From sequence record PZ386973.1: DNA of 64,000 nt; one strand, given 5' to 3'. The notes beneath the pieces are model-generated. The model did not search any database. It worked only from the letters and a program-made list of their open reading frames with translations, and was not told the DNA's origin. Numbering within the stretch: the stretch's first letter is position 1; each line of letters starts with the position of its first letter. Shown in pieces: positions 3,178 to 62,115 of this stretch. The position numbers and the translations under genes were made by a program. Source of the stretch: a phage.

Positions 3178-3206
3178 ATTATATCAAAATATTGGGATAA
3201 TAGCAA
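3178..3206 (-). promoter_or_regulatory. sigma70-type promoter (-35 TTGCTA, 17-bp spacer, -10 TATAAT) upstream of the polymerase gene
   Basis: Reverse complement reads TTGCTA-17 nt-TATAAT; same architecture as the other promoters in the window. Confidence 0.5.
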
Positions 3207-3209
3207 ATA

Positions 3210-3539
3210 CTATTTATAGGTGTGAAGTAATTTACGCATTTCATTGCGCTGCTTTTCTAGTACCCGAAATTCTTCATCTATACGCAGAAAAGCATCTAGC
3301 GCTTTCATAGATTGCTCAGTATTTTCTACAACAGCCCAATCATATGTTAGGTATACCTCTTGACCTGTATCTTTTACTTTAAAGTAAATATAAGATGCAG
3401 GTAATTTAGGATCACCAAATAAATGGAAATTCTTTCGTTTATTAAGGGACTCCAGTGTTGTAAACCGCTCTAGTTTAACCTCTTTGTGTGTTATACTATC
3501 ATACACTGGAACATCCGCATAAATATATACATATTCCAT
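3210..3539 (-). CDS. hypothetical protein
   Basis: 109-aa ORF between primase and polymerase, same strand. Confidence 0.4.
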   Translation of the reverse strand: MEYVYIYADVPVYDSITHKEVKLERFTTLESLNKRKNFHLFGDPKLPASYIYFKVKDTGQEVYLTYDWAVVENTEQSMKALDAFLRIDEEFRVLEKQRNEMRKLLHTYK

Positions 3540-3565
3540 AGTAGCTCCTCAGTTATTTAGGACTA

Positions 3566-4456
3566 TTATACCAAATCTTTAAGCGATTCAGCAACTAAAA
3601 TTTCAATACGTTTTGCTAACATATCAATTTCTTCTTTATTTAAGTCACCTGGGTCTTTACCTTCAGGCAGAAGAAAGTTAGCAACTACAGGTGTTAAACG
3701 CGTTTTTGTACGAATTAGCTTGGCCAGTGCTTGTGCAGCTTTATTACCAGAAGCATCATTATCTAGTAAGATAACAACAACTTTTACACCAGCAATAATA
3801 TAAGGACTAAACTTATCTGCAATGTTATCCGAAGTAAACTGATGTGTACCAAAGCAGCAAGAAGCATAGTCTATGCCATTATCCTCTAGGTTCAGCATAT
3901 CAAAGATACCTTCAACTAAAATAAGAACTGGAGTATTATATCGTACAGGAAAAATTGGCGGTGAAACTTGTTTTGGTTTTACTAAGTATTTAGGAGGGGC
4001 AGAACTGTTTATAGAACGACCCAAAAATAGGGTATTGCGTCCAACAGCATCTGTGATTGGGAATACAATTCTGCCTTCCCAGTCTGCTTGGTGTTGGAAA
4101 GCAAAATATTTCTTCAAGGTCTTAGAACTTATACCTCGGAAATCACCTTCGAAAAGGTAAGCAGATTCAGGAATTGCAAGATTCGTTGATCCATTCCTAA
4201 TCTCTGAAATCTTTTTACGTACTTGCGATAGCCTTGGAGACTGTCGGTACTGAGTCTCATTAAAATAATGGTAAATGCTCGGTATACCTTTACCGAAGCC
4301 ACAACTCAAGCAGTGCATAATACCTGTTTCAGGATCAATACGCAAACTTGGGTGTTTATCGTCATGATCTGGATTGAGACAACAGATGAGGATGTCCCCA
4401 CCTGTGTCTTTATATTCAATGCCTTTCAGATCAAGTAGTTCTGTTATTCTACTCAT
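3566..4456 (-). CDS. DNA primase (DnaG-like, zinc finger plus Toprim)
   Basis: CHC2-type zinc finger (CLNPDHDDKHPS...HCLSCGFG); Toprim E (LILVEG) and DxD (LLDNDASG); 4-bp overlap with helicase gene. Confidence 0.8.
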   Translation of the reverse strand: MSRITELLDLKGIEYKDTGGDILICCLNPDHDDKHPSLRIDPETGIMHCLSCGFGKGIPSIYHYFNETQYRQSPRLSQVRKKISEIRNGSTNLAIPESAYLFEGDFRGISSKTLKKYFAFQHQADWEGRIVFPITDAVGRNTLFLGRSINSSAPPKYLVKPKQVSPPIFPVRYNTPVLILVEGIFDMLNLEDNGIDYASCCFGTHQFTSDNIADKFSPYIIAGVKVVVILLDNDASGNKAAQALAKLIRTKTRLTPVVANFLLPEGKDPGDLNKEEIDMLAKRIEILVAESLKDLV

Positions 4457-5925: not shown

Positions 5926-5957
5926 TCTCCTTTGCACGCTTTCGTGCCTTCTAAATG

Positions 5958-7550: not shown

Positions 7551-7577
7551 ATTTCTTCCTTATCAATTTATATAAAT

Positions 7578-7606
7578 ATTATAGCAAGTATTTAAGCATT
7601 TAGCAA
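7578..7606 (-). promoter_or_regulatory. sigma70-type promoter upstream of ligase C-terminal part
   Basis: Reverse complement TTGCTA-17 nt-TATAAT followed by the conserved ATAAATTGATA leader. Confidence 0.5.
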
Positions 7607-7749
7607 CTACAATTTTAACTAACTTTGCTTACCCTCGCCATAACTTTCTATCCCTCAACTGAATGATAATAGTATATACCTAAGCGGCGAAAATGTCAAT
7701 AACCACTTTATAATTCCGATATGGTAGATGGGTAGCAAAGGGTTATGTA

Positions 7750-8721
7750 TTAATCGTATACTCGCTCTACTATGCACGGGATTACACCACCAGCACGAAT
7801 CACTCGAATCTGGCAACCGATCTCTAGATCAAGAGAGTTAATATAATCAACGTTATTAAGAGTCGCTTTAACAATTGTAGCATCATCAATAATTACCGGT
7901 TCGAAATAACCAACTGGAGTTACTTTACCAGAAGCCCCTACCTGCCATTCAACTTTAGTAAGAGTTGTAATCTCGCCTTCTTCATCCTCTTTAATAGCGA
8001 ATGCTCCACGAGGGAATTTATTAGTCCAGCCTTCTCGGAAGAATTTGTTGTTGTCATTAATACGAACAACTTTACCGTCCGTCGGAATCCATTTAAAGAA
8101 GGAACGCACATTAACAACTGTTAAGAAGTTCTCATTCTCTAGCCAAAGCATATCTTTTAAATACGATTCTGTAATACCTACAGATTCAGTAGAGCACTGG
8201 ATACCGTATGCAACGAAGATTAAACCACCTTCCCCGATACGTTGTACGAAATCATCACTATCTTTGAGGTTAATAGCACCCGAGGCAAAGTTACGTTTAT
8301 TTTCTACTTCTTTTGTAATTAGAACTTCACCAGTGATTTGGGTTGGTACTTTTTGGGAAATCCTTTTAGGAATGTTCAGCAATCTTACGTTGCTTGTGAC
8401 ATCATTCCCTAGAATACCATTACCCCGAGTTAGTGCTTGAACAAATTCGCCATTAATATATAACAGAGAAATCGCACAACCATCTAACTTATCAGTTTCT
8501 ACCTGACCTAATGGGTTAAACGGAGGTTTATCTCCACGATTATAATAAACTTTCTGTAAAGAATACATACGATACAGATGTGGAATATCACCCTTAGGCC
8601 CGATCTCTTCTTCTAACGGAAATCTTTTAATCAGACGATCATATTCTTCGTCAGAGATTAAAGACATTCCCTGGTAATATGCTTCTTGGCAACGTTTAAT
8701 AAATTCTTTTACATTAGTCAT
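7750..8721 (-). CDS. NAD-dependent DNA ligase, N-terminal adenylation domain
   Basis: Adenylation motif KLDG (DKLDGCAI); 323 aa; lies directly upstream of the C-terminal part. Confidence 0.8.
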   Translation of the reverse strand: MTNVKEFIKRCQEAYYQGMSLISDEEYDRLIKRFPLEEEIGPKGDIPHLYRMYSLQKVYYNRGDKPPFNPLGQVETDKLDGCAISLLYINGEFVQALTRGNGILGNDVTSNVRLLNIPKRISQKVPTQITGEVLITKEVENKRNFASGAINLKDSDDFVQRIGEGGLIFVAYGIQCSTESVGITESYLKDMLWLENENFLTVVNVRSFFKWIPTDGKVVRINDNNKFFREGWTNKFPRGAFAIKEDEEGEITTLTKVEWQVGASGKVTPVGYFEPVIIDDATIVKATLNNVDYINSLDLEIGCQIRVIRAGGVIPCIVERVYD

Positions 8722-8752
8722 TTATTTGTATCTCTCATTAATTTATATAAAT

Positions 8753-8781
8753 ATTATATAACAAAACTGAGTTGAAAGCAA
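8753..8781 (-). promoter_or_regulatory. sigma70-type promoter upstream of ligase adenylation-domain gene
   Basis: Reverse complement TTGCTT-17 nt-TATAAT plus ATAAATTAATGAGAG leader. Confidence 0.5.
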
Positions 8782-8808
8782 ATACATTTATAAAGAAAAA
8801 GCCAAGAA

Positions 8809-9911: not shown

Positions 9912-10017
9912 ATTTTATATTTCCTTAATTAAGAATTAAACAGAATAGTTCTTTCAAACTATGAGAATATTATATCAAGAATTATAGGATTAAGCAACTG
10001 AAATTTTTCGGTAATTG

Positions 10018-10278
10018 CTACACATCTAGCTCAACAATCTCCCAATCATCCGCTAGAGCTTCGTCTAGTGTTAATTCAACTTCTTCATCACTAGGCAGTA
10101 GTGTAGTATCTGAAGGCATCCACACATATTGGCGTACAGTATTGCTGTCTACGTCAAATTTCAATAGTACAGTATATTCTTTATTATTTTCCCAGCAATC
10201 TCGCTGGAGATATTTTACGTCTCCAGCTTTCAGCAAATCAGTTAGCTTACTCACGGCGTTTTCCTTTTTCTTTATCAA
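10018..10278 (-). CDS. hypothetical acidic protein
   Basis: 86-aa ORF; overlaps the start of the next gene. Confidence 0.35.
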   Translation of the reverse strand: MIKKKENAVSKLTDLLKAGDVKYLQRDCWENNKEYTVLLKFDVDSNTVRQYVWMPSDTTLLPSDEEVELTLDEALADDWEIVELDV

Positions 10279-10951: not shown

Positions 10952-10982
10952 ATTTAAACTCCTCTCTCAAATTTATGAATCT

Positions 10983-11011
10983 ATTATACAGAAAAATTTT
11001 CCTGAAAGCAA
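10983..11011 (-). promoter_or_regulatory. strong early promoter matching the T5 PN25 sequence
   Basis: Reverse complement AAAAATTTATTTGCTTTCAGGAAAATTTTTCTGTATAATAGATTCATAAATTTGAGAGAGGAG matches the PN25 promoter as recalled from memory. Confidence 0.7.
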
Positions 11012-11019
11012 ATAAATTT

Positions 11020-11262
11020 TTACGATTCCTTGAGCAAAGAAGCAAGTTCAGCATAGACTTTATCTAACTCAAAGCCGATGCGAAGAGACACGTTTGTTTT
11101 CCGTTGTTTAAGTAACCACTCGGATATGTTAGGGATGCCAGCTAGTCTAGCAGGAACCACCCTACATAGCTTTTCCGAAGTGTCGTAAACAGGAACTTTA
11201 CGTTCTTTTACAGGGAACTTCCTTGTTTCCCATTTTTTATTCTTCACTGTCATTTCTAGCAC
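11020..11262 (-). CDS. hypothetical protein
   Basis: 80-aa ORF. Confidence 0.35.
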   Translation of the reverse strand: MLEMTVKNKKWETRKFPVKERKVPVYDTSEKLCRVVPARLAGIPNISEWLLKQRKTNVSLRIGFELDKVYAELASLLKES

Positions 11263-17647: not shown

Positions 17648-17675
17648 AGCTTTCTCCTCTCAAATTTATAAATCT

Positions 17676-17704
17676 ATTATATATAAATTTTTGGCTGAAA
17701 GCAA
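17676..17704 (-). promoter_or_regulatory. sigma70-type promoter
   Basis: Reverse complement TTGCTT-17 nt-TATAAT plus ATAAATTTGAGAGGAG leader. Confidence 0.5.
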
Positions 17705-17746
17705 ATAAAATAAAAGCCAGGTCGACTAGCAACCCGGCTGATTAGC

Positions 17747-19624: not shown

Positions 19625-19871
19625 ACCCTCCTTCTCTAACTAAGACTACTATTATAACTCATTCGAGGGCGGATGTCAACAATATTTTACTATAAAGTTC
19701 TGTAACATGATCTGAGTCAAAAAATTTTATTTGCCAACCTCTATTAAAAATTGTATAATCACGCACTCGTGTATGCGATATAAAATGATTGTCTAGTATC
19801 ACACATCTACCATTAAAAGCAAGCAAATTTTTTATTTAAATGCAATATCATAGGCTTATTTAAAATTGTAG

Positions 19872-19900
19872 TTGCTTTTTACTGTATATATTGGTATAAT
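19872..19900 (+). promoter_or_regulatory. sigma70-type promoter upstream of the PhoH-like gene
   Basis: TTGCTT-17 nt-TATAAT; a second candidate (TTTGCC...TGTATAAT) lies at about 19728-19765. Confidence 0.5.
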
Positions 19901-19973
19901 ATATTTGTAAGTTGATAAACAAGATCTTTTTGTTGATCCTCTGTTAGCGAAGTACACTATAGGAGTGTTATTT

Positions 19974-23456: not shown

Positions 23457-23528
23457 TTGAAATTTTACTTGCTAATCTCTACCAGATTTGCTATAATATT
23501 CCTGAAATAGTGAGAAAGAGGAAAATCA

Positions 23529-26043: not shown

Positions 26044-26082
26044 CTCAAATAGCCCTTCGGGGCTATTATATCTAAATTTCAT

Positions 26083-26111
26083 TTGCTTACTGAGTGAAAT
26101 TTAGATATAAT
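26083..26111 (+). promoter_or_regulatory. sigma70-type promoter
   Basis: TTGCTT-17 nt-TATAAT. Confidence 0.5.
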
Positions 26112-26135
26112 ATATTTTATAAATCGGAGACAACT

Positions 26136-26390
26136 ATGGGACTCTTTAAAAAGAAAGTTTATTTAACACAAAGTCAAGAACGTAGGTTCTTAGCTCTGTC
26201 TCAGTATTATCACTTACCTTTCGATCATTTTGTAGAACGGGCGTTAGAACAATTCCTAGAAAAGGAATTAAAGGCAATTAGACCTGAACCGCCAAGAGTA
26301 CCAAATGATGCACAGAGAGGTCATCCATGTATTCCTCCTATGCCGCCAATTCCTCCAGCGACTAGGGTAATTATAGAAGGCGAAAACTAA
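26136..26390 (+). CDS. hypothetical protein with proline-rich C-terminus
   Basis: Start at the ATG behind a GGAGA ribosome-binding site; C-terminal PCIPPMPPIPP. Confidence 0.4.
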   Translation: MGLFKKKVYLTQSQERRFLALSQYYHLPFDHFVERALEQFLEKELKAIRPEPPRVPNDAQRGHPCIPPMPPIPPATRVIIEGEN

Positions 26391-27135: not shown

Positions 27136-27155
27136 TAAATAAATTAAAAATTCTC

Positions 27156-27184
27156 TTGCTTAAAGCTCTCTAATTTAGTATAAT
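27156..27184 (+). promoter_or_regulatory. sigma70-type promoter
   Basis: TTGCTT-17 nt-TATAAT. Confidence 0.5.
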
Positions 27185-27211
27185 ATTCGTATTGAAAGTG
27201 AGGAGGGCTTT

Positions 27212-27496
27212 ATGCGGATTTATAACTCAAATTCATTAGGATTTAAACCATTGAGAAAACGTGCACAATCACCTCGTCAAATAAGAAAGGCTAATATTGG
27301 TGAGCCAGAAACACGTCTTCCACCTCCTCCAGAACAACGTTTAGTTTATCTGGACGAAGAATTAGCTGAACGCGAAAGAAAAGCTCAAGAAGAGATTGAG
27401 CGTAAGAAAATGTGTACTGCTCCAGCCTACTCCAAGGGGGCTTATCAGTATATCTATACAGCCGAGGAGGCTAAAGATGCGGGGCGTAAAAAATGA
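27212..27496 (+). CDS. hypothetical protein
   Basis: 94-aa ORF; 4-bp overlap with the NADAR gene. Confidence 0.4.
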   Translation: MRIYNSNSLGFKPLRKRAQSPRQIRKANIGEPETRLPPPPEQRLVYLDEELAERERKAQEEIERKKMCTAPAYSKGAYQYIYTAEEAKDAGRKK

Positions 27497-27942
27497 AGAT
27501 TACTGAATTTAAAGGTACTTATAGTTTCTTATCTAACTTTTATTTATCACCAATTACTTTCGAATATCTAAATGAGATATGGCATGCTGATACTGTAGAA
27601 CATGCCTTTCAGGCTATGAAATCCGACCAAAAAGATGATGTAGCTCATGTACTGCGCTCCCTAAGTGCAGGAGTTGCCAAACGTAGGGGACGTAAATTAA
27701 CTCTGCGCTCTGACTGGGATAAGGTAAAAGATGATGTAATGCTAGAGCTTTTACGGTTAAAGTTTGCAATCCCTGATTTGAGAGACAAACTGTTAGCAAC
27801 AAAAAATGCAACTTTGGTCGAAGGAAATACCTGGGGAGATACATATTGGGGTGTTTGCCGAGGCATCGGGGATAATACTTTAGGAGTTCTTTTGATGCAG
27901 GTAAGGTCTGAAATTAAAAGAAGCTTACAGTTAATAAATTAA
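27493..27942 (+). CDS. NADAR-domain (YbiA-like) protein
   Basis: Motifs FLSNFY, VEHAFQAMK and WGVCRGIGDNTLGVLLMQVR match the NADAR/DUF1768 family. Confidence 0.75.
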   Translation: MKITEFKGTYSFLSNFYLSPITFEYLNEIWHADTVEHAFQAMKSDQKDDVAHVLRSLSAGVAKRRGRKLTLRSDWDKVKDDVMLELLRLKFAIPDLRDKLLATKNATLVEGNTWGDTYWGVCRGIGDNTLGVLLMQVRSEIKRSLQLIN

Positions 27943-27950
27943 AAATTCAT

Positions 27951-27979
27951 TTGCTAAACGCTTCAAATTCTCGTATAAT
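27951..27979 (+). promoter_or_regulatory. sigma70-type promoter
   Basis: AAAAATTCATTTGCTA...TCGTATAAT plus CATAAATTGATAAAC leader. Confidence 0.55.
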
Positions 27980-28017
27980 ATACTTCATAAATTGATAAAC
28001 AAAAAGGAAAATAAATA

Positions 28018-29118: not shown

Positions 29119-29820
29119 ATGAAAGTAAAACCATTTGGTATGCTAGATATTGAATCTCTAGGAACCCCTGGAGATTGTGGTACTACCCATATCGCAATGC
29201 CTTCATTCGCTTTTGTGGCTATGCATGGAATTGATAAAGACCCTGATCTAGTATTTGTTACTTTAGATGTACAAGATCAACTTAATTCTGGTGCCAAAGT
29301 TACAGCATCTACTCTAGCATTCTGGATGGATCAGGCTAAACATAGCCCGTCTGCTATTCACATTATGGAAGCTATGAAGGAACGTAATCCAAAACTGATT
29401 GCCTTCCAAAATGGTAAACATCATTGCACTAATAAATTAGGCTCAAACTATGCTGCCTTCTCTATGGCTCAAAATATTATGGAGTTGGCTCTAGGCGAAA
29501 ATGCTTTGTATTATGGCAATGGCCCAGAGTTTGATATGACTATCTACTCTGCAAACACGTTCCATGCTGGAACCAATGAAGAGGTAGTTCCGTGGAAATT
29601 CTGGAATTTGGGTAATGTTCGATCTCTTCGTAATCTCTGGATGCAAGCTGGATACAGTTATAAAGCTCTAGAGACAGAAGGTATTAGCTGGGCAATAGCT
29701 AAAATGGAGAAGATGGACACTATTCGTTATGGGATCTATCCGGTTAAGCATGATCCTGCATTTGATGCCTTAGTTGAAAGCTATTGTGTTGCAGCTATGA
29801 TCGAAAAAATGAAAATTTGA
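29119..29820 (+). CDS. putative DEDDh 3'-5' exonuclease (DnaQ-like)
   Basis: Exo I-like LDIESLG and Exo III-like HDPAFDALVESY; 233 aa. Confidence 0.5.
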   Translation: MKVKPFGMLDIESLGTPGDCGTTHIAMPSFAFVAMHGIDKDPDLVFVTLDVQDQLNSGAKVTASTLAFWMDQAKHSPSAIHIMEAMKERNPKLIAFQNGKHHCTNKLGSNYAAFSMAQNIMELALGENALYYGNGPEFDMTIYSANTFHAGTNEEVVPWKFWNLGNVRSLRNLWMQAGYSYKALETEGISWAIAKMEKMDTIRYGIYPVKHDPAFDALVESYCVAAMIEKMKI

Positions 29821-29821
29821 T

Positions 29822-29850
29822 TTGCCTCCGGCTCCAAAATTCTGTATAAT
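29822..29850 (+). promoter_or_regulatory. sigma70-type promoter
   Basis: TTGCCT-17 nt-TATAAT. Confidence 0.5.
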
Positions 29851-29890
29851 ATATTCATAAATTTGAGAAAACAATAAAAGGAAAACAAAT

Positions 29891-30765: not shown

Positions 30766-31148
30766 TGATTTGAAAGCTAGTAAATCGGTAGACGAAAGCC
30801 CAAGCATCTTACCTCGCAGCAGCGGTTGAAATACGAGGTTAAATAAGACCGCTGACCATACTATAAAGTATAATCTATTGGAGATTATGTTTATTACACC
30901 AGCCTTTTAAGCTGACACGTAAGAACAAAGCGTCGTTGATATTACCGACACAACTTCAAAGATCAACATTTAAGTATGAAAGCTGAAAAGTTTAAAGAAC
31001 TCAAACTTCTAAACTTCTAAAGCTAAAAGATGCAAAGTATTCGTTGATGATTCAAACCCTAGATCAAAGGTACATGGCTCATAAGATATGGCCTGTGGCG
31101 CCTCTAGGCTGTTTATCGGTTTACTAGTTTCACAATTTAAAAATGTAT

Positions 31149-31177
31149 TTGCTAATTTATTAAGTTATCTGTATAAT
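31149..31177 (+). promoter_or_regulatory. sigma70-type promoter
   Basis: TTGCTA-17 nt-TATAAT. Confidence 0.5.
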
Positions 31178-31207
31178 ATATTTTTAAATTGATGAAACGA
31201 GGCTATT

Positions 31208-32041: not shown

Positions 32042-32491
32042 ATGAAGGCAGCTTTGCTTTTAGTAGCTGCCCTTACCTTTAGCTTTAGTAGTCAGGCATC
32101 GCACGATGCAAAAGAAATAGATTGCATTGCTAAAAATATCTATTTCGAAAGTCGTGGTGAGGGCATAAAGGGAATGACGGCGATTGCACACGTTACTAAA
32201 AACCGTGTAAACTCCGGTAAATTCCCAGATTCCTACTGTAAAGTAGTATATCAGTCTAACCAGTTCTCTTGGGTATCTAAGAGACCAAAAGTTGATAAAA
32301 CTGATGAGGCTTGGCAAACCGCCAAGAATTTAGCTAGAGTGATATACTACGTTGATTTACCACAAGATCCTACACATGGAGCTTTATACTTCCATAGTGG
32401 TAAAGATAAACCGTACTGGACAAAGAAGTTTAAGAAAACAACTAAGATTAAGGGACATACATTCTATAAACCTGTTGCCACTAAAACTTAA
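32042..32491 (+). CDS. SleB/CwlJ-like cell-wall hydrolase with signal peptide
   Basis: N-terminal signal peptide; motif NIYFESRGEGIKGMTAIAHVTKNRV typical of the SleB hydrolase domain. Confidence 0.7.
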   Translation: MKAALLLVAALTFSFSSQASHDAKEIDCIAKNIYFESRGEGIKGMTAIAHVTKNRVNSGKFPDSYCKVVYQSNQFSWVSKRPKVDKTDEAWQTAKNLARVIYYVDLPQDPTHGALYFHSGKDKPYWTKKFKKTTKIKGHTFYKPVATKT

Positions 32492-32499
32492 AAATTTAC

Positions 32500-32528
32500 T
32501 TGCTTAAATACTTAAATTTCCGTATAAT
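32500..32528 (+). promoter_or_regulatory. sigma70-type promoter
   Basis: TTGCTT-17 nt-TATAAT. Confidence 0.5.
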
Positions 32529-32559
32529 ACTTCCATAAATTAATGAGAGGAAGCGAAAT

Positions 32560-32730: not shown

Positions 32731-33164
32731 TGGGTACGAACATGATTCGTGTACTACGAGAGTTGATTGAAGATGCTCGTAAACGTGGAGATACTGTATC
32801 GGTTAAGCACCTAAGTACGATTCTAGGTGACTTGCAACGTATTAACAAGGATTGCATAACTAAGCTGGAATTTACTAACTGGCTGAAATCCCAGTTCAAG
32901 GCAATTGAGAATACACAGACTGCTGCTGAAAAAGCAAATGTCGAATATATTCCTGATGATGAATATCTAGATCTTTTAGCAGGTTTAGAGTATGAATACG
33001 CTTTGCAACAGCTGACTGAAACCGAAATTCGTAAATACTTTGCAGAACTAGTTAAATTAAACCCAGGTATTACCAAAGCCCTACTAATGAAAACTATTAA
33101 GGCAGAGTTCCCAGGGCGTTATGATGGTAAAACAACTGCTTTGATTGCTAGTGAATTTTTCTAA
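32730..33164 (+). CDS. hypothetical protein
   Basis: 144-aa ORF. Confidence 0.45.
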   Translation: MGTNMIRVLRELIEDARKRGDTVSVKHLSTILGDLQRINKDCITKLEFTNWLKSQFKAIENTQTAAEKANVEYIPDDEYLDLLAGLEYEYALQQLTETEIRKYFAELVKLNPGITKALLMKTIKAEFPGRYDGKTTALIASEFF

Positions 33165-33172
33165 AAATTCAT

Positions 33173-33201
33173 TTGCTAAATGCTTATAAATTCTGTATAA
33201 T
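33173..33201 (+). promoter_or_regulatory. sigma70-type promoter reading into an ORF-free region
   Basis: TTGCTA-17 nt-TATAAT; no ORF of 60 aa or more for about 900 bp downstream. Confidence 0.5.
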
Positions 33202-34013
33202 ATATTCATAAATTAGAGAACAGCGAGCCGATTACGCTGAGTGCAGAATCCCAACCGGAGCGCATTGAATAGAGTCGGTGGGTTAGTTGTAAAACTAGTA
33301 CACAGGGGGCGGCAATCCCGGTTAGTGGCTAGAACGTGTAAAATGGGGCGTCTGAAACCTCTCCCTTAAACTCTTCTCTAATCTATAAATAGTGGGGTGT
33401 GGAAATCACTTATGTAGTAACACTGCCGTCCTAAGTTAATTGGTAGACTTCTGCACGCGGAGATTATATCTCCAGATGCGGAAAGTGCAGGTTCGAATCC
33501 TGCGGTCGGTAAGAACTGGATAACTGGTGCTTTTAACGTAAAAGCTTCCGAGGTTAGTTGCGCACTGCCTAAACCACGCGGTAGTTGGTTCCAGGCTAAC
33601 CAACCCGTCTGCTGAATAGTTTTATTACGATTTAGCTATGTCCAGGCTAAAGAAGAACTTTAGAAGGTATTCTAGGATAGTGAAGTTCTTTCTCCATATC
33701 GGAGTAGTTTTTCAGGCTATCCACAAAGTGGGAAATGCTGACATGAGAGATGTCACTAATGGTGCACAATAGCACAGGTAATTCGCGATAACTCCTGTTG
33801 AGTAGCAGCAAAAGGCGGGAAGTCATGACCCCAAGCCTAACCGAGTCCTCAATATACCGCAGGACATAACCACTAAGTCACCCTGACTTAAACTGGAAAA
33901 TAATAGACGTTACTGTATTTTGTCTTGAAATACTTAATGAGTGAGACTTATGACTCTCCCGGTATCGTCTGTATTTTTAAGAATTTTTACGAGAGTTCTT
34001 AAAAATACTTAAA

Positions 34014-36814: not shown

Positions 36815-37021
36815 TTTTTGACACCTCCTAGTATATAGAAAATGTGTGTCTCTTTGATCACTCATCCATAACATATACTTTACACTACCCCAGCGAAAAT
36901 GTCAAGGGGTCTTTAAAAATTGCCCCCGGATTTTTAGTGGGGTCACAAATTTTGGTCCTCACCACTTATATGCTACCCTTAAGTGCCCTATGATTTTCCT
37001 CTAAAAAGTTAAAAAATTTGA

Positions 37022-37050
37022 TTGCTTGAATGCTAAATTCTCTGTATAAT
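37022..37050 (+). promoter_or_regulatory. sigma70-type promoter
   Basis: TTGCTT-17 nt-TATAAT. Confidence 0.5.
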
Positions 37051-37080
37051 GTATCTATAAATTTGAGAGAGGAACCAAAT

Positions 37081-37599
37081 ATGAATGTTGACGAGCTAAC
37101 ACAGCACCTCTTATCTAGAGGATTTGATACAGATAAATATCATTGCTGGTTAAGTCCGGAAGGATGGCTAACAGTCCCGTTGTATGATTTCTCTGGGATG
37201 TTGAGGGGCTATCAGACGTATAATCCTTCTGCTCCAAAAGGTCATGGTAAGTGCCCCTTTGAGGCTAAATATTTTACCTGCTCTACTACACAGTGTGTAT
37301 GGGGGCTAGAAACTCTCAATGGAGATGAAAAAGTAGTATTGATCGCTGAATCTGTATTTAAGGCAGTTGCGTTACACAACGCTGGTTATCCAGCCCTGGC
37401 AATGTTGGGTTCTTCTCCAGGAAAAGCGTTATTAAAGCAACTGAAATTATTACCTTTTAAATTGGTAGCTGTCGGAGATAATGATCCTGCGGGTGAAAAA
37501 TTTGCTAGAAAATTAAACGGCTTTGTTTCTCCCGTAGATGTGGATGAGATGTCTACCGAAAACTTGAAAAATTTTCTTGCTATGAAGCTAAATTTCTAA
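37081..37599 (+). CDS. Toprim-domain protein
   Basis: Toprim E (LIAES) and DxD (GDNDPAGE); start at the ATG behind a GAGAGAGG ribosome-binding site. Confidence 0.5.
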   Translation: MNVDELTQHLLSRGFDTDKYHCWLSPEGWLTVPLYDFSGMLRGYQTYNPSAPKGHGKCPFEAKYFTCSTTQCVWGLETLNGDEKVVLIAESVFKAVALHNAGYPALAMLGSSPGKALLKQLKLLPFKLVAVGDNDPAGEKFARKLNGFVSPVDVDEMSTENLKNFLAMKLNF

Positions 37600-37620
37600 T
37601 ATAATATATCTTATAAATTC

Positions 37621-37714
37621 GGAAGATTAACCCTAAAGGTAAGGGAGCTGTTTGCTAAACAGCCAGTAACTGTGGAAACATGGTGTGCCAGTTCGAGTCT
37701 GGCATCTTCCTCCA
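37621..37714 (+). tRNA. tRNA-Ser (anticodon GCT), long variable arm
   Basis: Perfect acceptor GGAAGAT/ATCTTCC, T-arm TGCCA-GTTCGAGTC-TGGCA, anticodon loop TTGCTAA, encoded CCA. Confidence 0.65.
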
Positions 37715-38763: not shown

Positions 38764-38793
38764 CTCCTCCAAACAGAATTTTTAAAAATGTAC

Positions 38794-38823
38794 TTGCTTT
38801 TTGTCTTAAATTTCTGATATAAT
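38794..38823 (+). promoter_or_regulatory. sigma70-type promoter
   Basis: TTGCTT-18 nt-TATAAT. Confidence 0.45.
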
Positions 38824-38853
38824 AGTCATATAAATTGATGAAGGAGTTAACTA

Positions 38854-39136: not shown

Positions 39137-39177
39137 AGCACTGAGCAAGTTCTTCAAAATCTGACTTGCTCAGTGCC
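39137..39177 (+). terminator. stable hairpin, terminator or processing-site candidate
   Basis: 13-14-bp perfect stem AGCACTGAGCAAGT...ACTTGCTCAGTGC; no clear T-run. Confidence 0.4.
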
Positions 39178-39257
39178 CTAAAACTTGATATAATAGTTAT
39201 CTAATTTGGAAACATATTTAAAAGTGTTTAAACAAGTATTTGAATGCTTCTAAATAT

Positions 39258-39611: not shown

Positions 39612-39884
39612 ATGCATCCTGAAAACTTCTTTATTTACTGCGCGGATAAGTCGCTGAAACGTAGAATTAACAAAGTCTATCATTATCGTGCTAGTCAACA
39701 GCCTTATATATACGCTTTTGACGGTGATCACATTCCACTAGAACAATTATCCTGTGATTACATGATATTGAAGAACTTTGACGAGACAAAGATCTCAAGC
39801 GTTCATAATCGACAGAATCCATTAACGTGGAAATATAAGAAGAAAAAGAAAGGCATCAAATTCTTAAAAAATGTAGTTGCTTAG
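39612..39884 (+). CDS. hypothetical protein
   Basis: Start at the ATG behind a GAAGGAG ribosome-binding site; track start 39597 is TTG. Confidence 0.4.
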   Translation: MHPENFFIYCADKSLKRRINKVYHYRASQQPYIYAFDGDHIPLEQLSCDYMILKNFDETKISSVHNRQNPLTWKYKKKKKGIKFLKNVVA

Positions 39885-39905
39885 TTTCCAAAAGTTCTGT
39901 ATAAT
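39877..39905 (+). promoter_or_regulatory. sigma70-type promoter upstream of tRNA genes
   Basis: TTGCTT-17 nt-TATAAT. Confidence 0.5.
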
Positions 39906-39953
39906 AATTACATAAATTGAACTGGAGAAGCAACATGACAGAACAAGATAAAT

Positions 39954-41265: not shown

Positions 41266-41657
41266 CAAAATTTCAGTGCAGAACACGGAGCTAGCAATTC
41301 GGAAGTGCTGACTCATGATAAGCTGCCTATGTACTTGCGAAGCGGTCGTGTCCAAGACTCGGACTCTTGCACTGAAAACAATCAAACATTCTAGCGTGGT
41401 TGATGGGGAAACCAGCTTGGCTAGGGCAGAAGCTCGTTCGATTCGAGTGGAAGAATGGTTCTCGTAAGTCCGCACAAGTGATAACAGGTTCGAGTCCTGT
41501 CTAGAATGACACTATAAAGTTTACTTATTGAGTAGGTTCCGATAGATCGGCGGGTCTATTCTGGCATTTAAGAGAGGTCTCGCAAACTTCTTTGTCAGCC
41601 GTGGGGTTCATAGCCTCCAGGTGGCCTACACAATAAGTAAATTTATTAAAAATTCAT

Positions 41658-41686
41658 TTGCTATTCTGCTTAATTATCTGTATAAT
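41658..41686 (+). promoter_or_regulatory. sigma70-type promoter
   Basis: TTGCTA-17 nt-TATAAT. Confidence 0.5.
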
Positions 41687-41718
41687 ATATTTTATAAAGT
41701 GAAGAGAAGGAAAGCAAA

Positions 41719-42311: not shown

Positions 42312-42329
42312 ATTTCAAGAAAAACGCAG

Positions 42330-42358
42330 TTGCTTGATGCTTAATTTCTTGTTATAAT
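42330..42358 (+). promoter_or_regulatory. sigma70-type promoter
   Basis: TTGCTT-17 nt-TATAAT. Confidence 0.5.
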
Positions 42359-42596
42359 ATTTATATAAATTGATGAGGATTTCTCCTCATCATAGTTCAC
42401 TAAGGTATTAGCTCGACCTAGGACTGGCTGCCAAAAAGCACGATCCCTACGATTCGGGAGAAGTTCTAGATTAGTCCACTAGATTCAGCGGCAACTGAAT
42501 AGTGTATCGGGTTTGCGAGATGACGTAGTTCCTTCCGCTCGAAGCGAAGGTGCTGTAGTTACGCCGAGCTAATAGCCTTAGTAAATTAAAGAATTT

Positions 42597-44720: not shown

Positions 44721-44735
44721 AATTTAAAAATTCAT

Positions 44736-44764
44736 TTGCCTTCTCTCTTATTTATTGTTATAAT
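44736..44764 (+). promoter_or_regulatory. sigma70-type promoter
   Basis: TTGCCT-17 nt-TATAAT. Confidence 0.5.
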
Positions 44765-44794
44765 ATTTATATAAATTAATGAGAGGGAAACCAA

Positions 44795-46792: not shown

Positions 46793-46809
46793 ATTCTGAA
46801 ATAATTCAT

Positions 46810-46838
46810 TTGCTAAACCTCTCTTTTCTTGTTATAAT
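46810..46838 (+). promoter_or_regulatory. sigma70-type promoter
   Basis: TTGCTA-17 nt-TATAAT. Confidence 0.5.
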
Positions 46839-46868
46839 ATGTTTATAAATTGATGAGAGAGGTTTGAA

Positions 46869-48919: not shown

Positions 48920-48934
48920 ATAATAAAATTTTAG

Positions 48935-48963
48935 TTGCTTAGATGCCCAAACTTTTGTATAAT
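48935..48963 (+). promoter_or_regulatory. sigma70-type promoter
   Basis: TTGCTT-17 nt-TATAAT. Confidence 0.5.
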
Positions 48964-48994
48964 ATGTTTATAGATTGAGGCAAGAGGATTAAAT

Positions 48995-50099: not shown

Positions 50100-50383
50100 A
50101 ACCAGAGCCATCTCATGAGTTAAAGCAAGCTCATGTAGACTGGCCTAAAGGACTTCAACCTTGTAGCTTTAACTTTAGGTTTGAAAAGAAATTAGCTACA
50201 AATGGAGAAGATGGCGTAGTAGTTGTTATACCATACAAAGATTGGAATGCAAAAGCAAAATGTGAGGAAGCAGTTTACTCTTACATTTCACGACTGACTG
50301 GTATGGTCTGCTTCTATCGTCAAGATTTACAAGAAAAACGTTGCTTAGTTTACTATCCACCCATTACAAATAGGAAAGATTAA
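50030..50383 (+). CDS. lipoprotein, o-spanin candidate
   Basis: Lipobox-like signal LLAAAITITGC; start embedded in the 3' end of the upstream ORF in a different frame. Confidence 0.4.
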   Translation: MFNWKLGILLAAAITITGCAEEIKPEPSHELKQAHVDWPKGLQPCSFNFRFEKKLATNGEDGVVVVIPYKDWNAKAKCEEAVYSYISRLTGMVCFYRQDLQEKRCLVYYPPITNRKD

Positions 50384-54260: not shown

Positions 54261-54289
54261 AAGCCTGATCTTAGCTGATCAGGCTTTTA
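54261..54289 (+). terminator. rho-independent terminator
   Basis: AAGCCTGATC...GATCAGGCTT followed by TTATTTT. Confidence 0.7.
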
Positions 54290-54295
54290 TTTTAC

Positions 54296-54324
54296 TTGCT
54301 TTTTGCTAAAAATTTTGGTATAAT
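54296..54324 (+). promoter_or_regulatory. sigma70-type promoter
   Basis: TTGCTT-17 nt-TATAAT. Confidence 0.5.
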
Positions 54325-54351
54325 ATTTATATAAATTGATTGGAGGATTAA

Positions 54352-55463: not shown

Positions 55464-55750
55464 TGAATGATAGAATGAAAGAAGTACAAGAAGAATTACG
55501 AGCAATGCGTATTGATGCCCTTCGTTGGAGGGCATTAGTTAATGCTTTCGTCAAAGGAGATACCGGAGTAATATATTCTGGAATAGCAGTCAATTTTTGT
55601 TTTAATTCTCCTGCTGAAATAGAGATAGAAACAAGGCTTACTACCTACCTTAGTGAGGTAGACCTTAAGGAAGGAGAGACTTCCGAGGAGTTTAAAACTA
55701 GAGTATTAACTACCTGGGTTGATAATTTAATACAAAAAAGGAGTAAGTGA
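55463..55750 (+). CDS. hypothetical protein
   Basis: 95-aa ORF, coupled start. Confidence 0.4.
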   Translation: MNDRMKEVQEELRAMRIDALRWRALVNAFVKGDTGVIYSGIAVNFCFNSPAEIEIETRLTTYLSEVDLKEGETSEEFKTRVLTTWVDNLIQKRSK

Positions 55751-56340
55751 TGAAGGTTAAATTCTGGTCAGACTTGCACTTAGACCACCCTGGAGCACTA
55801 CGTTTCCGTCCGTGGTTTAAGAACATGAAAGAGCACGATGAGTATATTCTAGATACTTTATCCAAGCATATTGGTAAACGAACAAAACTTATTTTGCTAG
55901 GAGATATTGCAGTAGGTCGTGAAGGTCTGGCCAAATTAAAGTCGGTTATCCACAATGTCCCTAATCAACTCATTATGGGTAATCATGATGCGGAGCGTCA
56001 AGGACTGAGTATCAGGGACTTAGCGGAAGTTTATGACGATATTCAAGCTCTAGGCAAACAGACTGGAGGTGGCAAAAAGTTTTGGCTATCTCACTGCCCT
56101 TTGCACCCTAATGAACTTCGTGGCAAACTAAATATTCACGGACATGTACATACTACTTCTTTACGTGATCCACGTTATATTAATGTCTCATTTGAAATGA
56201 GTAGAACTCCAATTCCACTAGAGGATATTGTGTCTGGTAAGTTTACTAGTTACGATAGAGTGGTTAATTGTACTACCGGCGAGGTATTACAAATAGGAGA
56301 AGACGTAGCTGCTGTATTGCGTGGCGATATAAATGTCTAA
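55747..56340 (+). CDS. calcineurin-like metallophosphoesterase
   Basis: Motifs DLHLDHPG, LLGDI and GNHD; 197 aa. Confidence 0.65.
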   Translation: MMKVKFWSDLHLDHPGALRFRPWFKNMKEHDEYILDTLSKHIGKRTKLILLGDIAVGREGLAKLKSVIHNVPNQLIMGNHDAERQGLSIRDLAEVYDDIQALGKQTGGGKKFWLSHCPLHPNELRGKLNIHGHVHTTSLRDPRYINVSFEMSRTPIPLEDIVSGKFTSYDRVVNCTTGEVLQIGEDVAAVLRGDINV

Positions 56341-56448
56341 GTATATAGCTGAGGTTATTATTAAACGAATCATACAGGCGATAGCAATACTTATAATCAT
56401 TTGTATTGCTATTGGCACAGGATTAGGCATTTTAATTGAAAGTTTTAT

Positions 56449-56477
56449 TTGCTAAAATGCTTAAGTTTCTGTATAAT
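56449..56477 (+). promoter_or_regulatory. sigma70-type promoter
   Basis: TTGCTA-17 nt-TATAAT. Confidence 0.5.
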
Positions 56478-56507
56478 TACTTTATAAATTGATGAGAAGG
56501 AATCAAA

Positions 56508-56939
56508 ATGAACAAAGTTGATAAAGCTCTAGTTTTCGCAGCAGCAGATAAGTTTGAACAAGTTAAGGCAACTTTCCAAACCTTGTTCCAGTCTTACGTT
56601 CAAGATAAGTCTAATCCTATTTCTGAACGCTTAATGGTTTGGGAATGTCATGCTTGCAATGCCCTGCTAATTGCGGATTATCGTAGTGATATAGATAAAG
56701 ATCTCTGTGAAATCCTCATCCCTGAGGAAGCAGAACGTTATCAGCTAATCTCTTTTCAAGATTTGGCAGAGCATATTATTCCTGATGATCTTTGGGACAA
56801 GTATTACGGAGACCCTGAGGATGAGGGGATGACTCCAGAAGCATGTATTGAGTTAATCTGTAAGGATCATCCTGAAATTGCAGAAAAATTTGAAAAAGTT
56901 TTTGCTTCTGAGTTCTCTGGTGTTGTTAACGATTGGTAA
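56508..56939 (+). CDS. hypothetical acidic protein
   Basis: 143-aa ORF. Confidence 0.45.
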   Translation: MNKVDKALVFAAADKFEQVKATFQTLFQSYVQDKSNPISERLMVWECHACNALLIADYRSDIDKDLCEILIPEEAERYQLISFQDLAEHIIPDDLWDKYYGDPEDEGMTPEACIELICKDHPEIAEKFEKVFASEFSGVVNDW

Positions 56940-56957
56940 GTAATTAAAAAAATTCAG

Positions 56958-56986
56958 TTGCTTTAAGCCTTAAAATTCTGTATAAT
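56958..56986 (+). promoter_or_regulatory. sigma70-type promoter
   Basis: TTGCTT-17 nt-TATAAT. Confidence 0.5.
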
Positions 56987-57018
56987 AAGTTCATAAATTA
57001 ATGAGAGAGGAAATTCTA

Positions 57019-60389: not shown

Positions 60390-60994
60390 TGACTTTATAT
60401 GCACAACAACCTGTTCAAGTAGTACCAGACCATGAGTTAAATACTTGGGATTATAGCTTCAAAGATTTAACTGCTACTGTACAGTTCAAATCTATGAAAT
60501 TAACCTTTGCACATACTGATATTAAAGCATGTAAAGATTTTGAAGGTAAACTAAAAGAAGCTCGTAAGATTTTTGGCAGGGCTCGCATCCCAGCTGATAA
60601 TCTAATTAATACACTAATCGATGCTGGCTATAAACTCGTGAAGACCGAGGTGAACCGTCCTGATACTCCTATAACTGTTGGAGGTTACTGGGCTAAAAGT
60701 GGTATAGCATTTAATCCTAAAATAACGTCGGAAATGCACAATGTTCCATGCGGTGGCAATATAGAAAATAGTTCCTCATATCGAGTTGGTGAAGATTACG
60801 GCCCATCTGTACAGTTGAAACATACTCAAGAGGCTTTTGAATCTGACATGAAAAGCGTAGCACCTGCGGATACTAAAGGTTTTAGAAGTCCCATCTATGT
60901 TACTCACTTTAATAATCTTAGGCCTGGGAGTATAAATGATACTATCCTTGAAGCGTTGGGAGCTGCTCTTAATGAAGATAAGAGAGGTAGTTAA
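60389..60994 (+). CDS. hypothetical protein
   Basis: 201-aa ORF. Confidence 0.45.
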   Translation: MTLYAQQPVQVVPDHELNTWDYSFKDLTATVQFKSMKLTFAHTDIKACKDFEGKLKEARKIFGRARIPADNLINTLIDAGYKLVKTEVNRPDTPITVGGYWAKSGIAFNPKITSEMHNVPCGGNIENSSSYRVGEDYGPSVQLKHTQEAFESDMKSVAPADTKGFRSPIYVTHFNNLRPGSINDTILEALGAALNEDKRGS

Positions 60995-61725
60995 TGAAAG
61001 ATTTGGCTGTAAAGTTTAAGAATATTCTAGCCCTCGCTAAGGGGGCTGATCATCGCTGTTTCTCTGATTTAACCACTGAAGAGAAACATGCAGTAATGTT
61101 TGTTTGCGAAATGTTCCCAGCTAGATGGGAGGGTGGTAAGATTAAGTATGATAACAAAGCAGCAAAAGCTGACCTTGCTTATTCTTACGTTGATATGAAT
61201 AAACTCCTAAAGTCTTTAGACCCCACTGCTAAAGGTCACATGGGAAACTATATTCATGTTATCATTGATGAACCTCTCCCGGCTTATAGAGAAACATCCG
61301 CTAGAGAAGCATTAGAAGCATATCCAGAACAATTATACATTCCGCCTAAGAAATGTAAGTTCGATCATCTTCCAGCGTTAGCATTTGAAACTAGTATCAC
61401 GTTTGAAGATATTTATAGAACGATTGGAGCTGTAGTAGCACGGATTGCAGTGGCACATCATCGTGGCATAGAACTTACTACAGCGGAAGATTATATTCTA
61501 TACGCTATCCATGATGAAAAGGACTCCTTCAAACGTCTAATGGATGCTCTAGGATTAGGCAGTCTCACAGCGCTTGTGCTTAACCAGGCTCCTAGAACCA
61601 AGCGTTATGCAAAAGGATCTATTACTCTTGAAGAAACAGGGTCTACATCTTCATTCCTTGCTACATATATTTATTTAGCATCTAAAGGAATCTATCTAAA
61701 GGCTAGAAAGAATGTCACTATATAA
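60994..61725 (+). CDS. hypothetical protein
   Basis: 243-aa ORF. Confidence 0.45.
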   Translation: MKDLAVKFKNILALAKGADHRCFSDLTTEEKHAVMFVCEMFPARWEGGKIKYDNKAAKADLAYSYVDMNKLLKSLDPTAKGHMGNYIHVIIDEPLPAYRETSAREALEAYPEQLYIPPKKCKFDHLPALAFETSITFEDIYRTIGAVVARIAVAHHRGIELTTAEDYILYAIHDEKDSFKRLMDALGLGSLTALVLNQAPRTKRYAKGSITLEETGSTSSFLATYIYLASKGIYLKARKNVTI

Positions 61726-62068
61726 AGTATATATTCTTGCAAACAGGGATCTGACAAAGATCCCTAAGAGAACAAAGATCGGTATTAGCATGAATCCACA
61801 TAATAGGATTCAAACACTAAACTTAGATAAGATAGTCTATCGAGGTTTTGACGATTTATACGTGTATGGGGTCTATGAAACCCATAATCCTAGAGATCTA
61901 GAAGCCGCTGCTCATATCTACTTTAAGAAATACCGTTGTAATTTAAAGGGATTCGAAGGATGTACAGAGTTCTTTGATATTCACCCACAACTTGCAGAAC
62001 GATTCCTATTAAATACAGGAGCCAAGAAGATTTACGATCCCAATACCAATCTCGAAGGAGATGTATAA
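61712..62068 (+). CDS. GIY-YIG-like / T5orf172-domain-like protein
   Basis: N-terminal YKVYILAN...KIGIS...R pattern resembling the GIY-YIG-related T5orf172 domain; last plus-strand gene before the repeat region. Confidence 0.4.
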   Translation: MSLYKVYILANRDLTKIPKRTKIGISMNPHNRIQTLNLDKIVYRGFDDLYVYGVYETHNPRDLEAAAHIYFKKYRCNLKGFEGCTEFFDIHPQLAERFLLNTGAKKIYDPNTNLEGDV

Positions 62069-62085
62069 ACATTAACAAAATCTTC

Positions 62086-62115
62086 TTGACAACTCATTGC
62101 GGCACATGTTATAAT
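62086..62115 (+). promoter_or_regulatory. sigma70-type promoter reading into the non-coding repeat region
   Basis: Consensus TTGACA-18 nt-TATAAT with no ORF downstream. Confidence 0.45.

Follow-up and report, generated by a model that had tools for sequence, protein, structure and literature searches.

The window analysed here, a 64,000-nucleotide stretch of phage DNA, covers the early-gene region of a T5-like phage (Demerecviridae) with ~96% identity to Escherichia phage Es2. In this stretch, the pattern AAAAwTT-N3-TTGCTw-N17(18)-TATAAT-N6-ATAAATT marks 30 promoters, where ~2 would be expected by chance. All 30 coincide with promoter features annotated in the T5 reference NC_005859, in a collinear gene order. 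What recurs is the very strong "early" promoter of T5, described long ago: the stereotyped promoters and their transcribed leader, picked out in a first-pass annotation of this DNA, are real but already known. We call the conserved start of this leader the initial transcribed sequence (ITS).

On the minus strand, the promoter before the DNA polymerase gene (3152..3216; T5 70987-71061) has the ITS variant GTAAGTT and a 56-nt leader, which is conserved in Klebsiella and Serratia phages. A further copy of the promoter, with an 18-bp spacer (3537..3604), stands before an extra 109-aa ORF that is absent from T5 at this place. The ligB promoter (7552..7616), orthologous to T5 P-K28a, has the ITS ATAAATTGATAAGG and no ATG; the ligA promoter (8727..8791; T5 65284-65358) has an ATG at +9 that opens a mini-ORF (8718-8738), the TGA of which overlaps the real ATG at 8721. 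The D3 promoter (9943..10007), orthologous to P-N26, has the ITS ATAGTTTGAAAG and a 51-nt leader. The D2 promoter (10957..11021) is the P-N25 orthologue, with a predicted transcription start site (TSS) at 10976 and the ITS ATAAATTTGAGAGAGGAGTT, also without ATG. Its earlier identification as P-N25 from the segment 10983-11011(-) was right: with its flanks the site is identical to T5 P-N25 from -35 to +20; outside this segment, the upstream A-tract has lost 1 nt and carries one substitution, and 1 nt is inserted after +20. One more early promoter on this strand lies at 17650..17714 (T5 55708-55782).

All other sites are on the plus strand. A TTGCC-type promoter without the ATAAATT ITS (19721..19784; T5 53776-53850) has no CDS close downstream. 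The phoH promoter (19862..19926; T5 53638-53712) has the ITS variant GTAAGTTGATAA and a 67-nt leader, and the ITS of the nrdB promoter (23459..23522; T5 50061-50135) is a weak match. Next come two promoters, one with a 7-nt discriminator (26073..26138; T5 46937-47011), the other with an ITS that is not of the ATAAATT type (27146..27212; T5 46337-46411). They are followed by the P-H207 orthologue (27941..28006), by a promoter at 29812..29876 (T5 44393-44467) and by one at 31139..31203 (T5 43067-43141), whose leader ATG opens an out-of-frame mini-ORF (31192-31215) with its stop 5 nt inside the gene. In the P-D/E33 orthologue (32490..32554), the ATG opens a mini-ORF (32543-32563) that overlaps the real start at 32560 as ATGA.

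Several of the promoters that follow serve RNA genes. The P16-17 orthologue (33163..33227) precedes a non-coding stable RNA and tRNA-Arg and keeps the ITS ATAAATTAGAGA. Beyond the P15a orthologue (37012..37076), the P15b orthologue (37567..37632) is the promoter of tRNA-Ser: the tRNA begins at 37621, 8 nt past the predicted TSS at 37613, so that the ITS would here be a discarded pre-tRNA leader. The P15c orthologue (38784..38849) has an 18-bp spacer and a leader ATG opening a mini-ORF (38838-38885) that runs 29 nt into the gene. The P14a orthologue (39156..39220; ITS CTAATTTGGAAA) precedes the tRNA-Tyr/Glu/Trp/Phe cluster and is followed by the orthologues of P14b (39867..39931) and P13a (41648..41713). 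The P13b orthologue (42320..42384), the promoter of a stable RNA and tRNA-Ala, has no CDS downstream, and its leader ATG lies within a 5' hairpin (42371-42392; MFE -12.9, z -4.6).

In the last part of the window, the ATG of the P11 orthologue (44726..44790) opens a mini-ORF (44779-44859) that runs 62 nt into the gene, and that of the promoter at 46800..46864 (T5 26722-26796) opens one (46853-46867) ending in a stop that begins 4 nt upstream of the real start (46869). The promoter at 48925..48989 (T5 24443-24517) has the ITS ATAGATTGAGGC, and the one at 54286..54350 (T5 18550-18624) lies directly 3' of a terminator hairpin (54261-54286). In the P-F30 orthologue (56439..56503), the ATG opens a mini-ORF of 9 codons (56492-56521) with its stop 11 nt inside the gene; at 56948..57012 (T5 16245-16319), the leader ATG (57001) shares its frame with a Shine-Dalgarno-led start (57019). 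The site at the very end of the range given in the first-pass annotation, 62086..62128, does not belong to the TTGCT class: its first part (62086-62115) reads TTGACA-N18-TATAAT, its ITS is ATAGATT, and it has no T5 homologue.

Enrichment is limited to the T5-specific pattern: TTGCTW-N17-TATAAT with at most one mismatch gave 29 matches against 2.2 expected, a number reached in 0 of 100 shuffles, and TATAAT-N6-ATAAATT with at most one mismatch gave 21 against 0.68, whereas a generic sigma-70 scan of the window found no enrichment (58 sites for 65 expected). The earlier reading of more than 25 sites as strong, stereotyped sigma-70 promoters whose transcribed leader is conserved was borne out. When the 30 promoters were aligned in register, the A block at -45 to -42 was found in 25-28, TTGC in 28 and a 17-bp spacer in 28, the other two having 18 bp; TATAAT is present in all 30 by construction of the alignment. 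The A block (-45 to -39) resembles a proximal UP subsite of E. coli promoters (Estrem et al. 1999). Positions +2 to +7 (TAAATT) hold 0.67-0.94 bit each, near the level of the A block, and like it, the -35 and the -10 they are conserved, while spacer positions have low information (mostly 0.03-0.7 bit).

The label of an extended TGTATAAT -10, which had been attached to the whole set, had to be corrected. In this form, found in 11 of the 30 promoters, TG lies at -14/-13, shifted by one base from its place in the canonical extended -10; a true TGn (T at -15, G at -14; TGnTATAAT) is found in 12, seven have neither, and the set does not form an extended -10 class. The numbering follows N25, in which TATAATAGATTCAT corresponds to -12 to +2 (PMC7472727); the predicted TSSs of the window phage, at the A of ATAAATT, were obtained by transferring this register. 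In roughly 16 of the 30 leaders, counted by eye from the alignment, TTGA is found at about +5 to +11. A '+7 TTGA' homology in early promoters was reportedly noted by Gentz and Bujard in 1985 or by Kammerer and co-workers in 1986.

These sites are very probably class-specific early promoters of a T5-like phage that are read by the host sigma-70 RNA polymerase, with an ITS that acts at transcription and an ATG at +9 that is a by-product. Each is a composite promoter: a UP-like A block (-45 to -39), the -35 TTGCTw, a 17-bp spacer (with a true TGn in ~40% of the promoters), TATAAT without mismatch as the -10, a discriminator rich in A and T (AT.T.T), and the ITS A(+1)TAAATT, after which comes a run of purines. 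The ITS would work on the DNA, during initial transcription, by allowing a polymerase that is bound very tightly to escape fast. Where the unit codes for a protein, the purines (about +9 to +17) double as the Shine-Dalgarno of a gene starting at about +25: ribosomes would bind at the GAGAGG after ATAAATT, the Shine-Dalgarno for a real start that mostly lies at +25 or +26, leaving a 5'UTR of only ~24 nt. The ATG at +9 would result from one variant of this block (R-A + TGAGAG) and would not be a functional start codon.

The ITS is kept at the tRNA and stable-RNA promoters (33173, 37577, 39166 and 42330), and also at promoters with leaders of 51-67 nt, where a role as Shine-Dalgarno is impossible. 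It is absent from T5 pre-early and late promoters; the T5 promoter at 110349, before the lpp/Cor superinfection-exclusion gene, carries it. In relatives, an ITS matching at least 5 of 7 positions was found at 11 of 12 promoters in Klebsiella, 12 of 16 in Serratia and 8 of 12 in Vibrio phages. Conservation across the Demerecviridae and retention at promoters of tRNAs and non-coding RNAs argue for a role at the level of transcription. A promoter-escape role is known from the literature for N25 alone, and we infer its extension to all units. In PMC12464699, which cites Kammerer 1986, replacing +3 to +20 of N25 by antiDSR is reported to lower full-length RNA ~10-fold and to slow escape; the same paper presents the native, AT-rich ITS as a product of evolution towards rapid escape.

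The N25 escape data rest on this wholesale swap of +3 to +20, and escape leaves unexplained why the exact word ATAAATT, rather than AT-richness in general, is kept in phages of hosts from E. coli to Vibrio.

Discriminator and ITS might in addition form a class-specific control element, a reading that is compatible with the transcription-level explanation and that we regard as unlikely. The block would be either a target for early shut-off by a phage factor (e.g. gpT5.026 or D5) or a -10-like pause word: TAAATT, which has its A in position 2 and its last T in position 6, could induce sigma-70-dependent promoter-proximal pausing, a resemblance read from the sequence alone. Such a function would fit the presence of the block at early promoters and its absence from the pre-early and late promoters of T5, and the exact word is conserved as far as phages of Vibrio hosts, which is more than AT-richness alone would require. 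Moreover, Klimuk et al. located the main difference between early and late promoters in the discriminator (early consensus ATATT) and found that gpT5.026 makes RNA polymerase bind the -5/+2 segment with lower affinity and brings down the levels of early transcripts (PMC7472727); both findings count in favour of a control element. However, no factor is known to recognise +1 to +12, and the effect of the N25 ITS arises with pure E. coli RNA polymerase, without any phage protein. A related proposal, which we hold to be rather doubtful, is that the word at +1 to +12 (ATAAATTGA then purines) could serve as a handle by which a phage protein, or a pause through sigma-70 re-binding, switches the early class on or off; this word is found at early promoters of T5-like phages from E. 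coli to Vibrio and is absent from pre-early and late promoters.

The likeness of the promoters could also stem from recent duplication or recombination of one promoter cassette, by common descent and homogenisation and not by selection on each position. In relatives, the same promoter with its leader stands before different genes (clusters 0, 1, 2, 6, 13, 14 and 18), and a duplicated promoter flanks the inserted ORF at 3210-3594, where a single T5 promoter spans both copies. Orthologous promoters, however, hold the same functional positions across genera in which D2 is only 36-67% identical, and we consider this origin quite improbable. As the main cause of the stereotypy, recent cassette duplication was rejected because the spacers are not conserved along with the -35, the -10, the A block and the ITS.

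The first-pass annotation suggested translational coupling. The AUG at +9 would then be translated, and a mini-ORF of 4-9 codons would deliver or re-position ribosomes onto the real start; as a variant of this idea, the mini-ORF would tune expression of the gene. The ATG stands at exactly +9 in nine leaders, and the leaders are AU-rich and unstructured, hence accessible. The two mini-ORFs first cited as examples (32543-32563 and 46853-46867) both exist, about 2 nt from where they had been placed, and their stops, like that of 8718-8738, do lie at or beside the real start. The outcomes of the nine are nevertheless mixed: two overlap the start, one ends before it, four run 5-62 nt into the gene out of frame, one is in frame, and one, whose ATG lies within a hairpin 5' of a non-coding RNA, has no CDS. 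Contrary to the first description, the leaders do not have the ATG in common: 21 of the 30 promoters have none in a conserved leader, among them the classic strong N25, N26, K28a and H207; a tenth ATG at +9, in the 19731 leader, is coincidental and lacks the ITS motif.

Signals for initiation at +9 are absent. There is no Shine-Dalgarno in +1 to +8 (anti-SD duplex dG 0.0 in 8/8), and with 8 nt ahead of it in the transcript the AUG does not qualify as leaderless either. The real starts, in contrast, each have their own Shine-Dalgarno (dG -5.6 to -12.5 kcal/mol, with one weak exception) at a gap of 4-9 nt, and the ATG at +9 lies within it or directly 5' of it. Stops fall near the real start in 3/8 leaders with the ATG, in 5/14 leaders without it when these are read from +9, and from 28.6% of arbitrary reading starts.

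Among close relatives the ATG is stable: at orthologous Tequintavirus and Epseptimavirus promoters we counted two losses in ~180 instances, in a sample selected for the ATG. This IMG/VR scan was conditioned on the ATG and thus gives no unbiased rate of loss; whole-region scans of T5, Klebsiella, Serratia and Vibrio phages were used instead. In these, among promoters bearing the ITS, the ATG drops to 2/11 in Klebsiella, 1/12 in Serratia and 0/8 in Vibrio phages, so that the ITS is retained in these genera whereas the ATG is rare or missing. The ligB promoter has an ATG in the Klebsiella phage and lacks it in T5, the window and the Serratia phage. Neither start, frame nor stop of the mini-ORFs is conserved in orthologues or across genera: the changes include a 2-nt indel, ATGA to ATGG, ATG to ACG and ATG to ATA, which alter frame and length. 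Searching the literature for ribosome profiling of T5 or for genome-wide maps of its TSSs yielded nothing relevant. All together, these results make translational coupling very improbable; judged from sequence, weak translation from the unstructured 8-nt leader may occur, since the ATG is so stable at the orthologous promoters of the ATG-selected sample. That the leader is a conserved structured cis-regulatory RNA, the other suggestion made for it, is scarcely credible: a few single leaders fold (42330, z -4.6; the pol leader, 3116-3171), but folding +1 to +40 of the 30 leaders against mononucleotide shuffles revealed no shared structure (mean z -0.19, several with MFE 0.0), the shared AUAAAUU block is unable to pair with itself, and Rfam at the gathering threshold found only tRNAs in the window.

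As a discovery, the promoter set carries little weight: T5 early promoters have been under study since the 1980s, they are annotated in the T5 reference, and PN25 is the promoter of the commercial pQE expression vectors. The useful yield is a clean negative on the mini-ORF idea and the corrected "extended -10" label. With the ITS word conserved across the family and kept at promoters of tRNAs and non-coding RNAs, there is still room for a class-specific regulatory role, and a class-specific handle, if true, would bear on the unsolved early-to-late switch of T5.

Compared with known coupled leader mini-ORFs of the ATGA type, two window leaders, 8738(-) and 32543, have the same stop/start overlap; the window mini-ORFs, however, carry no signal for ribosome binding, whereas the main gene is served by its own Shine-Dalgarno, and their layout varies between units, is no commoner than chance would give and is not conserved. 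The T5 early promoters (Gentz & Bujard 1985; NC_005859) have in common with the window the -35 TTGCTw, the 17-bp spacer, TATAAT, the A block at -43 and TAAATT at +1, and T5-like phage AKFV33 has the same published consensus (TTGCTw, 17-18 bp, TATAATA, AAAAATT at -43, TAAATT at +1; PMC3326045). The window phage is nevertheless an isolate separate from T5, with ~79-99% identity around the promoters, an inserted ORF and one additional promoter copy ahead of pol, and different genes downstream of some promoters. Finally, the 'downstream sequence region' of N25 (Kammerer et al. 1986; Hsu laboratory) is exactly the conserved leader of the window, +1 to +20: in both, the non-template strand is AT-rich and then purine-rich, properties tied to fast escape. 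The experiments on that region concerned N25 and artificial variants only, and to these the window analysis adds the conservation of ATAAATT throughout the family.

Read in reverse, the window has the same gene order as the early region of the reference phage T5 (NC_005859), namely DNA polymerase, primase, D5, ligB/ligA, D3, D2, nrd genes, thy, tRNA cluster and small early genes, and its right end extends to the terminal-repeat/injection-stop region. Positions 10000-14000 matched 448 T5-like phage records, and Escherichia phage Es2 was 96.7% identical over this interval. ARAGORN predicted 22 tRNA genes; Rfam detected no families besides tRNAs in the window.

The first-pass annotation had described stereotyped strong promoters with a conserved transcribed leader, and the motif is indeed far above chance. 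Allowing at most one mismatch, TTGCTW-N17-TATAAT had 29 matches in the window against 2.2 expected, and TATAAT-N6-ATAAATT had 21 against 0.68. In-register alignment of 30 sites gave the consensus AAAA(A/T)TT.A.TTGCT(T/A)-N17-TATAAT-AT.T.T-ATAAATT(g/t/a)(a/g)(t/a)GA(r)(r), in which the A block, the -35, the -10 and positions +2 to +7 (0.67-0.94 bit per position) are rich in information and the spacer is poor. The extended TGTATAAT also proposed was found in 11 of the 30 sites, but it lies one base out of the canonical register (TGnTATAAT); a true TGn was present in 12/30 and neither TGn nor TGTATAAT in 7/30.

Each of the 30 sites falls on an annotated "promoter" of the T5 reference record, among them P-N25, P-N26, P-K28a, P-H207, P11, P13a/b, P14a/b, P15a-c, P16-17, P-D/E33 and P-F30. 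PN25 had been correctly recognized: together with its flanks, window 10983-11011 (-) corresponds to T5 P-N25, without any difference between -35 and +20. According to Klimuk et al., N25 reads TATAATAGATTCAT from -12 to +2 (PMC7472727), which sets the first A of ATAAATT as +1 and makes the "conserved leader" the initial transcribed sequence (ITS). The same authors describe an ATATT discriminator common to early promoters (PMC7472727), with which our alignment agrees. In T5, the ITS block distinguishes the early class: the annotated pre-early (P-H22 and two others) and late (P-G25, P-J5 and others) promoters are without it. The block does occur in the promoter at 110349, which precedes the lpp/Cor superinfection-exclusion gene. 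The leader of late promoter P-G25 (T5 record L006, 12013-12087), ATTAAAGAGGAGAAATTAACTATGAGA, presumably matches the synthetic "RBSII" of pQE vectors.

Within the window, the ITS is retained at promoters that serve tRNAs or stable RNAs rather than proteins, namely P16-17 (33173), P14a (39166) and P13b (42330). It is also retained at P15b (37577), whose predicted start at 37613 lies just 8 nt before tRNA-Ser (37621, +), so that the ITS AUAAAUUC would be the entire 5' leader of the pre-tRNA, and at 3206, 9997 and 19872, despite start codons 51-67 nt downstream. This retention speaks for a transcriptional and not a translational role. At N25, changing +3 to +20 to antiDSR is reported to decrease full-length RNA about 10-fold, to increase abortive synthesis and to slow escape, and the native AT-rich, purine-rich ITS is read as evolved to let polymerase leave its very stable open complex fast (PMC12464699, citing Kammerer et al. 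1986); this escape function was defined at N25 alone, by block substitution. The ITS of the other units would likewise allow rapid escape of tightly bound polymerase. The motif also persists in relatives, at least 5/7 ITS positions being kept in 11/12 promoters of Klebsiella phage IME260, 12/16 of Serratia phage Kamaji and 8/12 of Vibrio phage X1. Phages as far apart as those of E. coli and Vibrio keep the exact word ATAAATT, which is restricted to the early class; this leaves room for an additional, class-specific control: a phage factor could act on the discriminator and ITS or, alternatively, a sigma-70-dependent pause could occur at the -10-like TAAATT.

An AUG at +9 of some leaders may at most be weakly translated. 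The first-pass annotation had proposed that a leader ATG opens mini-ORFs ending at or overlapping the real start codon, suggesting translational coupling or a conserved RNA element. The ATG does occur at +9 in 9 of the 30 leaders, all nine of the conserved type, but not as a shared feature. It lies within, or directly 5' of, the real gene's own Shine-Dalgarno, and the 8 nt preceding it allow no anti-SD pairing (duplex dG 0.0 in 8/8 tested). In compact units, the common type, the gene starts at +22 to +27, mostly +25/+26; the purine run at +9 to +17, 4-9 nt from the start codon, forms an anti-SD duplex with a dG of -5.6 to -12.5 kcal/mol (with a single, weak exception), so GAGAGG serves the real gene as its Shine-Dalgarno. 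The mini-ORF overlaps the start through ATGA at 8718-8738 (-) and 32543-32563 (+), stops 4 nt before it at 46853-46867 (+), and extends into the gene, out of frame, by 5, 11, 29 and 62 nt at 31192, 56492, 38838 and 44779 (all +), respectively; the ATG is in frame with the gene at 57001 (+), and at 42373 (+) it is part of a 5' hairpin that precedes a non-coding RNA. Non-ATG leaders read from +9 likewise stop near the start in 5/14 cases, PN25 (-5) among them, as do 28.6% of arbitrary reading starts (median length 7 codons); by chance alone, then, the AT-rich, fixed-spacing layout yields short mini-ORFs that end close to the start. An IMG/VR search, restricted to ATG-type leaders, matched only contigs of T5-like size, and the mini-ORF differed among orthologues: a 2-nt indel took one from in frame to 10 codons, a change of ATGA to ATGG lengthened another from 6 to 9, and others gained new stops or lost the ATG (ACG, ATA). 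Among promoters bearing at least 5/7 ITS positions, the ATG is present in two in IME260, one in Kamaji and none in X1; the ligB promoter carries ATAAATTGATAAGG in T5, the window and the Serratia phage and ATAAATTGATGAGG in the Klebsiella phage. With no Shine-Dalgarno of its own, such mixed outcomes, chance-level stops and variation among orthologues, translational coupling is unsupported. A conserved RNA element is likewise unsupported, the leaders being unstructured (mean z -0.19).

Individual stem-loops were seen in a few leaders. The P13b transcript opens with a strong 5' hairpin, GATGAGGA-TTTC-TCCTCATC (42371-42392, +; MFE -12.9, z -4.6), whose loop and stem sequences vary in relatives, and the P16-17 leader shows compensatory changes in T5-type relatives (AAATTAGAGA..TCTCTAATTT versus AAATTAGATG..CATCTAATTT); the leaders compared are those of IMG/VR clusters 7 and 17. 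Both are probably stabilising 5' stem-loops of stable-RNA and tRNA precursors. The DNA polymerase gene has a 56-nt 5'UTR (window 3116-3171, -; T5 record L002 26041-26099; records L003 27652-27709 and L004 28599-28653) that is almost invariant between the window, T5, a Klebsiella Sugarlandvirus and a Serratia phage, despite D2 protein identity of only 57-67%. Its fold is a 5'-terminal stem-loop with 12 pairs, in which all changes are of the G-U type; it could serve as a translational operator like that of T4 gp43 autoregulation.

In the primase/polymerase interval, window 3210-3604 (-) holds a 109-aa ORF with its own promoter copy, extra relative to T5, whose single promoter matches parts of both window copies. 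One and the same promoter-leader unit is joined to different genes among IMG/VR relatives. From these arrangements, the stereotyped promoters look like recombination joints for gene cassettes. Non-TTGCT promoters also occur in the early region, at 19679 (-), 51851 (+), 53478 (+) and 59633 (+), with TATAAT and a -35 of TTGACA, TTGACT, TTGACG or TTGTAA; their T5 counterparts precede nrdD, the holin gene, T5.038 and T5.023, and only 53478 retains the ATAAATT ITS. A perfect-consensus TTGACA-N18-(TG)TTATAAT promoter with ITS ATAGATT (62086-62128, +) sits in a 330-bp stretch without T5 homologue and is directed into the injection-stop/terminal-repeat region (window 62326-63943 = T5 10608-8936), with no ORF evident downstream.

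The promoters of the window are already known. For 32 promoters of the T5-like phage AKFV33, the published consensus combines TTGCTw and TATAATA, spaced by 17-18 bp, with AAAAATT at -43 and TAAATT at +1 (PMC3326045); that of the window is the same.
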